Shown in pieces: positions 13,186-54,672 of a stretch of DNA of 64,000 nucleotides. Each line of letters starts with the position of its first letter. Position 1 is the first letter of the stretch. Origin of the DNA: Escherichia coli. GTDB taxonomy: Bacteria > Pseudomonadota > Gammaproteobacteria > Enterobacterales > Enterobacteriaceae. The notes beneath the pieces are model-generated. The model saw only the letters and a program-made list of their open reading frames with translations. It made no database searches and was not told the origin of the DNA. The stretch is taken from the NCBI RefSeq assembly GCF_041248615.1, contig NZ_CP158426.1; one strand, written 5' to 3'. The position numbers were made by a program, and so were the translations under genes.

Positions 13186-13273
13186 TGTGATATTCTGTAT
13201 GCCGTTTTTACGGATATGACAGGGTGAGGGGTAACCTCACATCCTGATTATTGACTAAGTGCGCGTTGTTCAT

Positions 13274-13371
13274 GCCGGATGCGGCGTGAACGCCTTATCC
13301 GGCCTACAAATCATGCAAATCCAAAATATTGCAGGAGTTATGTAGGCCTGATAAGCGTAGCGCATCAGGCA
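13274..13371. repeat. BIME: two REP elements in inverted orientation
   Basis: gccggatgcggcgtgaacgccttatccggcctaca (13274-13307) and tgtaggcctgataagcgtagcgcatcaggca (13341-13371) match the REP consensus. Confidence 0.8.
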
Positions 13372-14238: not shown

Positions 14239-14270
14239 GTCGGATGAGACGCGAACGTCTTATCCGACCC
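14239..14270. repeat. REP-like palindrome between tcdA and csdE
   Basis: ggtcggatgagacgcgaacgtcttatccgacc inverted repeat. Confidence 0.6.
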
Positions 14271-14280
14271 GGTTCTGTGC

Positions 14281-27419: not shown

Positions 27420-27505
27420 GCCGGATGCGACGCTAGCCGCGTCTTATCCGGCATATAAGTGCATTAAATTCAATGTGCTGATAATCGTTTGCATCCGGCA
27501 CGTCG
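27420..27505. repeat. REP element plus partial REP between fucO and xni
   Basis: gccggatgcgacgctagccgcgtcttatccggcat, then a partial copy ...tttgcatccggca. Confidence 0.7.
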
Positions 27506-45670: not shown

Positions 45671-47905
45671 ATGGTTGCGGTAAGAAGTGCACATATCAAT
45701 AAGGCTGGTGAATTTGATCCGGAAAAATGGATCGCAAGTCTGGGTATTACCAGCCAGAAGTCGTGTGAGTGCTTAGCCGAAACCTGGGCGTATTGTCTGC
45801 AACAGACGCAGGGGCATCCGGATGCCAGTCTGTTATTGTGGCGTGGTGTTGAGATGGTGGAGATCCTCTCGACATTAAGTATGGACATTGACACGCTGCG
45901 GGCGGCGCTGCTGTTCCCTCTGGCGGATGCCAACGTAGTCAGCGAAGATGTGCTGCGTGAGAGCGTCGGTAAGTCGGTCGTTAACCTTATTCACGGCGTG
46001 CGTGATATGGCGGCGATCCGCCAGCTGAAAGCGACGCATACCGATTCTGTTTCCTCCGAACAGGTCGATAACGTTCGCCGGATGTTATTGGCGATGGTCG
46101 ATGATTTTCGCTGCGTGGTCATCAAACTGGCAGAGCGTATTGCTCATCTGCGCGAAGTAAAAGACGCGCCGGAAGATGAACGCGTACTGGCGGCAAAAGA
46201 GTGCACCAATATCTACGCGCCGTTGGCGAACCGTCTTGGGATTGGACAACTGAAATGGGAGCTGGAAGATTACTGCTTCCGTTATCTCCACCCGACCGAA
46301 TACAAACGCATCGCAAAACTGCTGCATGAACGCCGTCTCGACCGCGAACACTATATCGAAGAGTTTGTCGGCCATCTGCGCGCTGAGATGAAAGCTGAAG
46401 GCGTTAAAGCTGAAGTGTATGGTCGTCCGAAACACATCTACAGCATCTGGCGCAAAATGCAGAAAAAGAACCTCGCCTTCGATGAGCTGTTTGATGTGCG
46501 TGCGGTACGTATTGTCGCCGAGCGTTTACAGGATTGTTATGCCGCACTGGGGATAGTGCACACTCACTATCGCCACCTGCCGGATGAGTTTGACGATTAC
46601 GTCGCTAACCCGAAACCAAACGGTTATCAGTCTATTCATACCGTGGTTCTGGGACCAGGTGGCAAAACCGTTGAGATCCAAATCCGCACTAAACAGATGC
46701 ATGAAGATGCAGAGTTGGGTGTTGCTGCGCACTGGAAATATAAAGAGGGCGCGGCAGCTGGCGGCGCACGTTCGGGACATGAAGACCGGATTGCCTGGCT
46801 GCGTAAACTGATTGCGTGGCAGGAAGAGATGGCTGATTCCGGCGAAATGCTCGACGAAGTACGCAGCCAGGTATTTGACGACCGGGTGTATGTCTTTACG
46901 CCGAAAGGTGATGTCGTTGATTTGCCTGCGGGATCAACACCGCTGGACTTCGCTTACCACATCCACAGTGATGTCGGGCACCGCTGCATCGGGGCAAAAA
47001 TTGGCGGGCGCATTGTGCCGTTCACCTACCAGCTGCAGATGGGCGACCAGATTGAAATTATCACCCAGAAACAGCCGAACCCCAGCCGTGACTGGTTAAA
47101 CCCAAACCTCGGTTACGTCACAACCAGCCGTGGGCGTTCGAAAATTCACGCCTGGTTCCGTAAACAGGACCGTGACAAAAACATTCTGGCTGGGCGGCAA
47201 ATCCTTGACGACGAGCTGGAACATCTGGGGATCAGCCTGAAAGAAGCAGAAAAACATCTGCTGCCGCGTTACAACTTCAATGATGTCGACGAGTTGCTGG
47301 CGGCAATTGGTGGCGGGGATATCCGTCTCAATCAGATGGTGAACTTCCTGCAATCGCAATTTAATAAGCCGAGTGCCGAAGAGCAGGATGCCGCCGCGCT
47401 GAAGCAACTTCAGCAAAAAAGCTATACGCCGCAAAACCGCAGTAAAGATAACGGTCGTGTGGTGGTAGAAGGTGTCGGTAACCTGATGCACCACATCGCG
47501 CGCTGCTGCCAGCCGATTCCTGGAGATGAGATTGTCGGCTTCATTACCCAGGGGCGCGGTATTTCAGTGCATCGTGCAGACTGTGAGCAACTGGCGGAAC
47601 TGCGCTCCCATGCGCCAGAACGCATTGTTGACGCGGTATGGGGCGAGAGCTACTCCGCCGGATATTCGCTGGTGGTCCGGGTGATGGCCAATGATCGCAG
47701 TGGATTATTGCGTGATATCACGACCATTCTTGCCAACGAGAAGGTGAACGTGCTTGGCGTTGCCAGCCGTAGCGACACTAAACAGCAACTGGCGACTATC
47801 GACATGACCATTGAGATTTACAATCTGCAAGTGCTGGGCCGCGTGCTGGGTAAACTCAATCAGGTGCCGGATGTTATCGACGCGCGTCGGTTGCACGGGA
47901 GTTAG
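45671..47905 (+). CDS. relA: GTP pyrophosphokinase, (p)ppGpp synthetase I
   Basis: 744 aa. Confidence 0.95.
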   Translation: MVAVRSAHINKAGEFDPEKWIASLGITSQKSCECLAETWAYCLQQTQGHPDASLLLWRGVEMVEILSTLSMDIDTLRAALLFPLADANVVSEDVLRESVGKSVVNLIHGVRDMAAIRQLKATHTDSVSSEQVDNVRRMLLAMVDDFRCVVIKLAERIAHLREVKDAPEDERVLAAKECTNIYAPLANRLGIGQLKWELEDYCFRYLHPTEYKRIAKLLHERRLDREHYIEEFVGHLRAEMKAEGVKAEVYGRPKHIYSIWRKMQKKNLAFDELFDVRAVRIVAERLQDCYAALGIVHTHYRHLPDEFDDYVANPKPNGYQSIHTVVLGPGGKTVEIQIRTKQMHEDAELGVAAHWKYKEGAAAGGARSGHEDRIAWLRKLIAWQEEMADSGEMLDEVRSQVFDDRVYVFTPKGDVVDLPAGSTPLDFAYHIHSDVGHRCIGAKIGGRIVPFTYQLQMGDQIEIITQKQPNPSRDWLNPNLGYVTTSRGRSKIHAWFRKQDRDKNILAGRQILDDELEHLGISLKEAEKHLLPRYNFNDVDELLAAIGGGDIRLNQMVNFLQSQFNKPSAEEQDAAALKQLQQKSYTPQNRSKDNGRVVVEGVGNLMHHIARCCQPIPGDEIVGFITQGRGISVHRADCEQLAELRSHAPERIVDAVWGESYSAGYSLVVRVMANDRSGLLRDITTILANEKVNVLGVASRSDTKQQLATIDMTIEIYNLQVLGRVLGKLNQVPDVIDARRLHGS

Positions 47906-48000
47906 TCTTACATAGCTGGATATGGCGTCAGCCGTATCCAGCGATATCTTTTACTCGAAGGTATTACACCTGACGGACCCGCAATTTTCAGGACATTCTA

Positions 48001-48792
48001 ATGAATCAAATCGACCGTTTGCTCACCATCATGCAGCGCCTGCGCGATCCGGAAAACGGCTGCCCGTGGGATAAAGAGCAGACATTTGCCACCATTGCAC
48101 CTTACACCCTTGAAGAAACCTACGAAGTGCTGGACGCCATTGCCCGTGAAGATTTTGACGATCTGCGCGGTGAACTCGGCGATCTACTGTTCCAGGTGGT
48201 TTTTTACGCACAAATGGCTCAGGAAGAAGGGCGCTTTGACTTTAATGATATATGCGCCGCGATCAGCGATAAATTAGAACGTCGCCATCCGCATGTTTTT
48301 GCTGACAGTTCTGCCGAAAACAGTAGTGAAGTGCTTGCCCGTTGGGAGCAAATCAAAACCGAAGAGCGCGCGCAGAAAGCGCAGCATTCGGCGCTGGACG
48401 ATATTCCTCGTAGTTTACCGGCTTTAATGCGTGCGCAAAAAATCCAGAAACGTTGCGCCAACGTTGGTTTTGACTGGACGACGCTTGGTCCGGTAGTCGA
48501 TAAAGTCTACGAAGAGATCGACGAGGTGATGTACGAGGCACGGCAGGCTGTTATCGACCAGGCTAAACTGGAGGAGGAAATGGGCGACCTGCTGTTTGCC
48601 ACGGTCAATCTGGCTCGTCATTTAGGGACAAAAGCGGAAATCGCATTGCAAAAAGCGAACGAAAAATTCGAGCGTCGTTTTCGCGAAGTGGAGCGTATTG
48701 TTGCCGCGCGTGGACTGGAAATGACAGGTGTTGACCTCGAAACAATGGAAGAAGTCTGGCAACAGGTAAAACGGCAGGAAATTGATCTCTAA
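48001..48792 (+). CDS. mazG: Nucleoside triphosphate pyrophosphohydrolase MazG
   Basis: 263 aa from MNQIDRLLTIMQRLRDPENGCPWDKEQTF; starts 95 bp after the relA stop. Confidence 0.95.
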   Translation: MNQIDRLLTIMQRLRDPENGCPWDKEQTFATIAPYTLEETYEVLDAIAREDFDDLRGELGDLLFQVVFYAQMAQEEGRFDFNDICAAISDKLERRHPHVFADSSAENSSEVLARWEQIKTEERAQKAQHSALDDIPRSLPALMRAQKIQKRCANVGFDWTTLGPVVDKVYEEIDEVMYEARQAVIDQAKLEEEMGDLLFATVNLARHLGTKAEIALQKANEKFERRFREVERIVAARGLEMTGVDLETMEEVWQQVKRQEIDL

Positions 48793-49004
48793 GGGAATTA
48801 CGTGGTCAAGCGCGATTTGTGTCATTTTTTAAATGACAAGCGCTTGATTTGCGTCAAAAACATTTACCCCAAAGGGGCTATTTTCTCACTCCTGATTTCA
48901 ATAGTGCGCTGGCGAAGAGGAGGGATAATGAAAGTTTGTGGCACAGGTCATGTTCGGGTATACTGCTTTCCCGTCCTGGTTATTCCATCGTCTTTTCAAC
49001 CTAA

Positions 49005-50657
<1,653 letters not shown>

Positions 50658-52092: not shown

Positions 52093-52101
52093 ATGGTTGA
52101 G

Positions 52102-52974
52102 TTACCAGCGACCGGACGCGCCGCCACCGCCAGAAGAACCGCCCCCGCCGCTAAATCCGCCGCCACTTGAGCCGCCACCGGAACCGCTGTTGTCTGAATG
52201 ATAACTTCTACCAGATGCTTTTTTCTGAAGTACACATAAACAGGTAAAGACCATAATGGTGGTGAAAGTAAAAAAGAAGAAAAATACAGCAATGGAAAAA
52301 GTTTTATCGGAGAACAGGAATAAATCTAAAAGATAGATTGCTGAAATACAGACACTGCTTTTACATGCGCGACAAAAATTACTGCCTTGATGAAAAAACC
52401 AGAAAGGGAAGAACATCACTGCAAATACCCAAAAAATAGCAAAGTAATAATGATCACTGGAAGACGCTGATTCAATTTCTGAAGGATTAGCCGGATATTG
52501 GTGTTGTGAAGTGAGTTGGTTATTCAAAGCGTTTATAGCTAGCTCTAATCCCTGAGCTAATTTTTGTTGTTTAAATGCGGGTATCATGTTGCTACGGATG
52601 ATATCTCCAGCCAGAGCATCGGTTACCTTTTCTTCCAGCCCATAACCTACCTGGATGCGGACAGTACGATCCGACCAGGCAACAATGATCAGTATCCCAT
52701 CATTACGTTTGGCATCTCCTAAACGCCAATTGTCAAAAACCCGTGTAGCATATTTTTCAATTGTCTCGTCTTTGGTTGTGGGAACAATTAATACAGCAAT
52801 TTGCACTTGGGTATTATTGAAAATAGATTCTAACTTGTACGTCAGTTCTTTCTTTTCTTGTGAGTTTAAGCTACTCGTAAGATCCGTAACTTGTTGCTGT
52901 AATGATGGGACAATAGTTGGTTGGGCTGCAACAAAGGAACACACGAATGTGAATATTAGTATGAAATAGCGCAT
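52102..52974 (-). CDS. ygcG: TPM-domain membrane protein with glycine-rich C-terminal tail
   Basis: 290 aa from [19 protein letters not shown] (signal peptide); C-terminus [28 protein letters not shown]; the track ORF is 15 codons longer. Confidence 0.8.
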
Positions 52975-53267
52975 TATAAATGTCCCATTAAAGCTGGATA
53001 AATAAATTGACGGCGGCATCGGTAATTTGAGATTCGTTATAATTAAAAACGAACACAGAAAAAATAAGTATAATTTTGGTGAATGTTTTTGACATGATTA
53101 AATCCCTTTACTTTATTTATTTCTGACATAATACGTTACTCCCTTTTATTATTAACGATCTGTTTCTCATTTTTCTTTAAACCTGCCTGTAACAGAATGT
53201 TAATAAGACATGATTGTTGTGGCAGGATCTGCAATAATTAACAATTATCCACTTCACAGAGAATGCT

Positions 53268-53939
53268 ATGCAGTACCCGATTAACGAGATGTTCCAGACC
53301 CTGCAAGGTGAGGGTTACTTTACCGGCGTCCCCGCCATTTTTATTCGTTTACAGGGATGCCCGGTTGGCTGTGCCTGGTGCGACACCAAACACACCTGGG
53401 AAAAGCTTGAGGATCGGGAAGTCTCCCTTTTCAGCATTCTGGCGAAGACCAAAGAGAGTGATAAGTGGGGGGCGGCGAGCAGTGAAGACTTGCTGGCTGT
53501 CATTGGTCGCCAGGGATACACCGCGCGGCATGTGGTGATTACGGGTGGTGAGCCTTGCATTCATGATTTGCTGCCACTGACTGACCTGCTCGAAAAGAAC
53601 GGTTTTAGCTGCCAGATCGAAACCAGTGGTACTCATGAGGTACGCTGCACACCGAATACCTGGGTTACCGTATCGCCAAAGCTGAACATGCGCGGCGGCT
53701 ATGAAGTGTTGTCACAGGCACTGGAGCGAGCCAACGAAATCAAGCATCCAGTGGGACGCGTGCGTGATATTGAAGCACTGGATGAACTACTGGCAACACT
53801 GACCGATGATAAACCGCGAGTCATTGCGCTGCAGCCGATTAGCCAAAAGGAAGATGCTACTCGTTTATGTATCGATACGTGCATTGCGCGCAACTGGCGT
53901 TTGTCGATGCAAACACATAAATATTTAAATATTGCCTGA
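53268..53939 (+). CDS. queE: 7-carboxy-7-deazaguanine synthase (radical SAM)
   Basis: 223 aa with CPVGCAWCDT cysteine motif. Confidence 0.9.
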   Translation: MQYPINEMFQTLQGEGYFTGVPAIFIRLQGCPVGCAWCDTKHTWEKLEDREVSLFSILAKTKESDKWGAASSEDLLAVIGRQGYTARHVVITGGEPCIHDLLPLTDLLEKNGFSCQIETSGTHEVRCTPNTWVTVSPKLNMRGGYEVLSQALERANEIKHPVGRVRDIEALDELLATLTDDKPRVIALQPISQKEDATRLCIDTCIARNWRLSMQTHKYLNIA

Positions 53940-54277: not shown

Positions 54278-54672
54278 GAGTTCCCCGCGCCAGCGGGGAT
54301 AAACCGGCTGATGCGGTTCTATCACCACCACAAATTATGAGTTCCCCGCGCCAGCGGGGATAAACCGCAAATACGCGCGAGTGGCTAACCTGGAATCATG
54401 AGTTCCCCGCGCCAGCGGGGATAAACCGGCGCGGACGATAATCAGGGGCAGGCAGGGCACGAGTTCCCCGCGCCAGCGGGGATAAACCGGAAATCCAATA
54501 TTAACGTGGTGTTTTCAAAACGAGTTCCCCGCGCCAGCGGGGATAAACCGCGTTTAGCTCCGCAATGCTGGATATCACTGATGAGTTCCCCGCGTCAGCG
54601 GGGATAAACCGTATGGGAAACAGTAGCAACGGGCACACTGGCGGAGTTCCCCGCGCCAGCGGGGATAAACCA
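54278..54672 (+). CRISPR. Type I-E CRISPR array, 7 repeats and 6 spacers, no cas genes in window
   Basis: 29-bp repeat GAGTTCCCCGCGCCAGCGGGGATAAACCG at 54278, 54339, 54400, 54461, 54522, 54583 and 54644 with 32-bp spacers. Repeat 6 has C13T; the last repeat ends ...CCA instead of ...CCG. Corresponds to the ygcE-ygcF array of E. coli (established knowledge). Confidence 0.95.

Follow-up and report, generated by a model that had tools for sequence, protein, structure and literature searches.

The relA-mazG locus of the Escherichia coli genome studied here carries, with a probability that we put at about 0.9, a natural mazEF-free allele, in which a 95-bp spacer with a REP-like hairpin core and a conserved mazG leader separates the two genes; this is the general Enterobacterales arrangement, and the K-12 state would be a derived one. 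All coordinates refer to the window, the whole stretch of 64,000 nucleotides that was analyzed. The mazEF-free allele is real, common, and ordinary, and it is already known from the literature (PMC7167474), where the relA-mazG pair of mazEF-free strains is called an "undisturbed bicistronic operon" (Fraikin et al. 2020). The locus consists of the following features.

45671-47905, + strand: relA, which encodes a GTP diphosphokinase of 744 aa and comes first in the relA-mazG pair, from the ORF list; NCBIfam NF008124 equivalog with 1678 bits over residues 1-744, and annotated relA in identical records.
47906-48000, + strand: relA-mazG intercistronic spacer without mazEF, exactly 95 bp, from the sequence and from a negative tblastn for MazE and MazF.
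48001-48792, + strand: mazG (nucleoside triphosphate pyrophosphohydrolase, 263 aa), from the ORF list; TIGR00444 with 419 bits and NF007113 with 370 bits, annotated mazG (WP_001071643.1).

The initial annotation had stated that mazEF is missing between the two genes, and this is borne out. A tblastn search with the K-12 MazE and MazF proteins returned no match at E ≤ 1e-3 in the whole 64-kb window, the interval itself included; the strain has no MazF toxin at the relA-mazG locus. The order relA-mazE-mazF-mazG given for K-12 was also right: in J53 and MG1655, an interval of 731 bp separates relA from mazG and holds mazE (249 bp, 82 aa) as well as mazF (336 bp, 111 aa). The sole ORF in the spacer, of 50 aa at 47922-48074, runs out of frame across the mazG start and matched no NCBIfam family, and it was treated as non-coding. 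The absence of an FRT or loxP-like scar likewise stood up in a search of the whole window for these 34-bp sites, which found none within 3 mismatches.

Aligned to K-12 (the chpA locus), the window has the same relA, the same mazG, and the same last ~34 bp of the mazG leader with its ribosome-binding site. Homology extends as far as the relA stop codon and is found again only over those last ~34 bp, within which CACCTGAC(G/A)GACCCGCAATTTTCAGGACA is kept in the window, K-12, and E. albertii. In place of the 731 bp that hold mazE, mazF, and their promoter region in K-12, a REP-like segment of ~60 bp is found in the window. It is unrelated to the K-12 interval: its 55-bp core, the first 55 bp of the spacer, gives a Smith-Waterman score of 11 against K-12, with shuffles at 9.8 ± 1.6. 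The mazEF promoter region, meaning the K-12 sequence just upstream of mazE, was not found 3' of relA in the alignment to K-12, the local score being that of chance. Against the Citrobacter gillenii spacer, which occupies the same position, the 55-bp core scores 17, with shuffles at 7.2 ± 1.2 (maximum 11), or ~8 sd above chance. Within the spacer, three elements can be told apart.

47915-47942, + strand: REP-like hairpin with a 12-bp stem and GTCA loop, GCTGGATATGGC-GTCA-GCCGTATCCAGC; a 28-nt extragenic palindrome, flagged as terminator-like by a consensus scan.
47943-47952, + strand: tail GATATCTTTT, a weak U-tract, called as a terminator-like tail in the scan and read from the sequence.
47967-48000, + strand: mazG leader, also present in mazEF-positive strains, last ~34 bp CACCTGACGGACCCGCAATTTTCAGGACA, with an AGGA Shine-Dalgarno sequence at 47990-47993, seven bases before the ATG.

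A hairpin at 47915-47941 followed by a T-rich tract had been described earlier. The hairpin is real, with 12 pairs including one G-U, a 4-nt loop, and a folding energy of -23.3 kcal/mol (z = -6.4 vs dinucleotide shuffles), but its end was placed one base short of 47942. The tract contains only four consecutive T, beginning 6 nt past the stem, which argues against a strong intrinsic terminator. The Rfam scan of 47600-48300 found no RNA family at E ≤ 1, and the hairpin was thus ruled out as a curated RNA.

The hairpin agrees with the REP half-site GCCGGATAAGGCGT at 12 of 14 bases. The REP search used this 14-mer as a fixed query with mismatches, the consensus being based on the general REP pattern and on the canonical REP copies of the window; matches to it are enriched in the window (5 observed vs 0.47 expected), and the remaining ones are canonical REPs. 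Such canonical palindromes, for example TGCCGGATGCGGCGTGAACGCCTTATCCGGCCTAC, lie at 13272-13306, 14243-14272, and 27420-27452 and were the standard against which the junction hairpin was classed as REP-derived. REP elements are imperfect palindromes of about 30-35 nt. In the hairpin, the REP core GCCGGAT...ATCCGGC is changed to GCTGG / CCAGC, and the GTAG / CTAC tetranucleotide of the stem foot is not kept, the window having ATAG (47911-47914) where the locus L003 has GTAG and the Citrobacter copies have GTAGG. One pair in the stem is compensatory, U-A in the window vs C-G in L003 and Citrobacter gillenii (L011), so that the stem is retained. Because foot and core are mutated and the stem is kept, the hairpin appears to be REP-derived, resembling a decayed REP element and not an intact one.

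REP elements in general protect the 3' end of upstream mRNA and attenuate read-through. The junction hairpin would act in the usual way of REP hairpins, shielding the relA mRNA upstream of it at its 3' end and attenuating read-through in part. A sigma-70 promoter scan of 47500-49100 gave no promoter-like site, leaving a separate mazG promoter without support. Because no such site lies nearby, and because relA-mazG has been described as bicistronic in mazEF-free strains (PMC7167474), we infer that the relA promoters would drive mazG by read-through, the two genes forming one bicistronic unit. In the K-12 state, the mazEF cassette of ~0.69 kb, with its own promoter, lies where the window has the REP-like segment.

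To see how common the mazEF-free state is, a 295-bp junction probe was compared with 5426 complete RefSeq E. coli genomes, a genome being positive if at least 80% of the probe was covered in one piece. The contiguous relA-mazG junction is present in 1006 of the 5426 (18.5%), from wild and clinical sources, and in the rest the probe matched in two separate places. K-12-type mazEF DNA was found in 4419 genomes, on the chromosome every time. As 1006 and 4419 add up to 5425, which is the number of genomes having the locus, the two states appear to be mutually exclusive, and K-12-type mazEF appears, as judged from these DNA counts, not to sit elsewhere in mazEF-free genomes.

The window itself is 100% identical to NZ_LT599825.1 at 1120001-1184000, from the clinical isolate E. 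coli NRZ14408, with the relA coordinates offset by exactly 1,120,000; the provenance check that had been proposed thus leads to a clinical and not an engineered strain. Isolate 362 from a Madrid hospital, also a clinical isolate, shows complete or almost complete identity over 17 kb and is 100% identical in the junction region. Alignment of the junction to K-12 and to mazEF-negative genomes, as the initial annotation had advised, gave a core unlike K-12 and a spacer that is near-identical in mazEF-free strains: it differs from the window at 0 positions in ST2747, 2 in L004, and 4 in ABU 83972. The mazEF-free allele of ST131 and of ST73 / ABU 83972 has the gene order and 95-bp spacer of the window, and both lack mazEF; in ABU 83972 the first 63 bp, hairpin included, are the same as in the window. 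The coding flanks of the window, however, are ~5% off the common ABU 83972-type version and represent a sub-variant found at ≥ 99% in 7 of the 5426 genomes. The other ~1000 genomes with the junction match at roughly 97-98% identity. Of the earlier options, a cassette replacement had been ranked below a scarless deletion or a haplotype naturally free of mazEF; this preference is supported by these data, and strongly so for the natural haplotype, given the frequency among complete genomes, the clinical source, and the adjacency of relA and mazG at 79 Enterobacterales loci described below.

Among named strains, O25b:H4-ST131 and ABU 83972 are mazEF-free, and IHE3034 and E2348/69 bear mazEF. We take all four to belong to phylogroup B2, in which case B2 would be polymorphic for mazEF. 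IHE3034, presumably of the same sequence type as UTI89 (ST95), has an intact mazEF at its relA-mazG locus. UTI89 has been given as a mazEF-free example (Fraikin et al. 2020, PMC7167474). That E. coli strains differ in whether they carry mazEF is also stated there, with Fiedoruk et al. 2015 cited for how unevenly TA systems are spread over the strains.

The arrangement extends beyond E. coli. A MazG-based scan of species-representative genomes yielded 80 loci, from Escherichia, Citrobacter, Salmonella, Klebsiella, Enterobacter, Kosakonia, Pantoea, Erwinia, Pectobacterium, Serratia, and others. In 79 of the 80, relA ends upstream of mazG with 34-1785 bp between the two; the gap is at most 175 bp in 63, and MazE and MazF had no match at any of the Enterobacterales species-representative loci scanned. 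Direct adjacency of relA and mazG is thus the general arrangement in the Enterobacterales and probably the ancestral one, and the K-12 state would therefore be derived. The spacers of Citrobacter, Klebsiella, and Salmonella contain REP-type palindromes, GTAGGCCGGATAAGGCG...CGCCATCCGGC, that start right after the relA stop codon. The window hairpin aligns with them at the same position and with the same palindrome core, GC(C/T)GGATA(A/T)GGCG...ATCC(G/A)GC. Unlike those REPs, the window copy is without the canonical GTAG foot and GCCGG core, and it consists of one palindrome only, whereas two are present in several spacers of Citrobacter and Klebsiella. Because REPs are dispersed repeats, the likeness to the Citrobacter REP could reflect an independent REP insertion at the same spot instead of orthology.

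Other cassettes occupy the same site in some genera. In Superficieibacter sp. 1612_C1 (L018:2066-3000), a parDE-type pair takes the place of mazEF, a 95-aa ORF matching ParD (TIGR02606, E 9e-25) and a 98-aa ORF matching ParE_toxin (PF05016, E 1.5e-11). A 1.8-kb insert lies between relA and mazG in Buttiauxella agrestis ATCC 33320 (L042:1210-2994) and encodes an Hcp/TssD protein (TIGR03344, E 3e-56) followed by ORFs of 261 and 109 aa. Neither of these two ORFs matched a family; by position alone, they might encode a putative type VI effector and its immunity protein. In Superficieibacter electus (L016:2051-3000), a 110-aa ORF at the site is, by eye, similar to the Buttiauxella 109-aa ORF. parDE at the relA-mazG site is also on record for Salmonella (Fraikin et al. 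2020, PMC7167474). One speculative reading, which we consider rather unlikely, is that the palindrome 3' of relA marks a recurrent integration hot spot, at which E. coli received mazEF, Superficieibacter (and, according to the literature, Salmonella) parDE, and Buttiauxella a three-gene cassette headed by Hcp, and from which such cassettes may also be purged again by homologous recombination through the conserved relA and mazG flanks; the window would then be an empty site. If true, the hot spot would offer a palindrome-targeted insertion route for promoter-plus-TA cassettes. TA systems have been described as horizontally transferred cassettes of a promoter plus TA genes (Ramisetty et al. 2016, PMC5120126, where the point is taken from Ramisetty and Santhosh 2016, as far as that work is reported there), and the mechanism of their movement has been stated to be unknown (PMC7167474). 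The presence of different cassettes at one intergenic site across genera gives a modest clue to the site choice of TA cassettes.

E. albertii gives some depth to the history of mazEF at this locus. The type strain NBRC 107761 (L005:2740-3000) is likewise without intact mazE and mazF between relA and mazG, and its spacer is 261 bp long. Its first ~45 bp correspond to sequence from just upstream of mazE (AAATTTGTTCGTGTCTACAAGTAGATTGA vs AAATTTGCTCGTATCTACAATGTAGATTGA in K-12) and its last part to sequence from downstream of mazF (AACTCACTTCTGTTCTGGTCACAGG), with REPs between the two remnants; the window has neither remnant. From these alignments, the locus of the type strain is a decayed mazEF locus. 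This suggests either a long history of mazEF at the relA-mazG site in the genus or its exchange between species, and mazEF may predate the split of E. coli and E. albertii. Because it may do so, the mazEF-free allele within E. coli could be a secondary re-acquisition and not an unbroken ancestral state.

How the natural mazEF-free allele came to be in this lineage can be considered from the variation around the junction. We compared the window site by site with cS51a, PKF4, K-12, ABU 83972, and IHE3034, and one further feature emerged.

47680-48201, + strand: SNP stretch around the junction, with 12 window-only SNPs in 47680-47860 and 5 in 48099-48201 (six strains aligned).

One possible route, to which we give some but limited credence, is that homologous recombination with a divergent Escherichia donor lacking mazEF brought in a short tract, running from the 3' end of relA through the REP spacer into the 5' end of mazG, and that a resident mazEF allele was thereby replaced. 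Such an event would be natural and scarless and differs from the reading of a natural mazEF-free allele only in route. It is in keeping with the clustering of the window-unique SNPs on both sides of the spacer, outside of which lineage-specific SNPs are common to the window and the mazEF-positive cS51a on both sides, for example at 47569-47587 and 48252-48279. Sliding identity to K-12, ABU 83972, and IHE3034 falls to 92-95% only at ~47300-48450. This 1151-bp stretch is matched at ≥ 99% in 7 genomes only, compared with 296 genomes for the upstream 25 kb, which is itself ~98.2% identical to K-12. The strain cS51a is 99.1% identical over the 25 kb upstream of the locus and has mazEF together with a MazG protein identical to that of the window; therefore, the allele has switched within the lineage, in one direction or the other. 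A similar picture is seen between the B2-type strains ABU 83972, without mazEF, and IHE3034, with it, which differ almost only within ~1 kb of the indel. On the aligned sites, this mosaic bears the mark of alleles having been exchanged through homologous recombination in conserved flanks. However, cS51a could equally have gained mazEF along with consensus flanks, and no donor emerged, identity in the tract being only 90-94% for L003, L004, and E. albertii. The tract carriers ST2747, O169:H41, MEW, and isolate 362 are 99-100% identical to the window over several kb around the tract, which fits vertical inheritance of a larger haplotype, and because these carriers are also close relatives over that distance, the switch in the window lineage may have been either a gain or a loss.

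An in-place natural deletion of mazEF in an ancestor, by slippage or illegitimate recombination, would make the 95 bp the remains of a K-12-type interval, and we hold this to be very improbable. E. albertii NBRC 107761 does show that in-place decay of mazEF happens at the locus, but what survives there, namely the segment that directly precedes mazE in K-12 (AAATTTGCTCGTATCTACAATGTAGATTGA) and the segment ACTCACTTCTATTCTGGTCAC from downstream, is not in the window spacer, which argues against such a deletion; so does the 55-bp core, which is at chance against the K-12 interval and far above it against the Citrobacter gillenii spacer. A scarless laboratory ΔmazEF deletion or a collapse of the locus in assembly has practically no probability left, since nothing speaks for either beyond the bare absence of mazEF and the population data refute both, with the spacer identical in the independently sequenced ST2747, the junction intact in isolate 362 and in ~1000 more genomes, a clinical isolate as the source, no FRT or loxP site, and spacer sequence that is absent from K-12 and therefore not derivable from it by deletion.

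Two other observations were made in the window. Downstream of queE lies a CRISPR array (54278-54672) with 7 repeats of GAGTTCCCCGCGCCAGCGGGGATAAACCG at a 61-bp period, which we take to be the E. coli type I-E CRISPR repeat. The array was missed by Tandem Repeats Finder and detected by a general repeat search; in the identical isolate 362 the annotation also gives a CRISPR there, and the length of the array varies among related strains. Downstream of eno, a cluster of TPM-domain and LemA genes is present in ABU 83972 (L084:16298-19854) and IHE3034 (L085:16758-20335), where K-12 and the window lineage (window ~52100-53900) have ygcG and yqcG only, yqcG being frameshifted in isolate 362. The TPM/LemA cluster is a second presence/absence polymorphism near the relA-mazG locus.

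Taken together, our results confirm the status of mazEF as an accessory insertion that does not belong integrally to the relA operon. This is of relevance to old claims that tie MazF to the stringent response, although the point has already been made in the TA field. For work that takes K-12 as its reference, mazEF should be expected to be missing from ~18.5% of complete E. coli genomes, including those of ST131 and ABU 83972. In such mazEF-free strains, mazG probably depends on relA-driven transcription.
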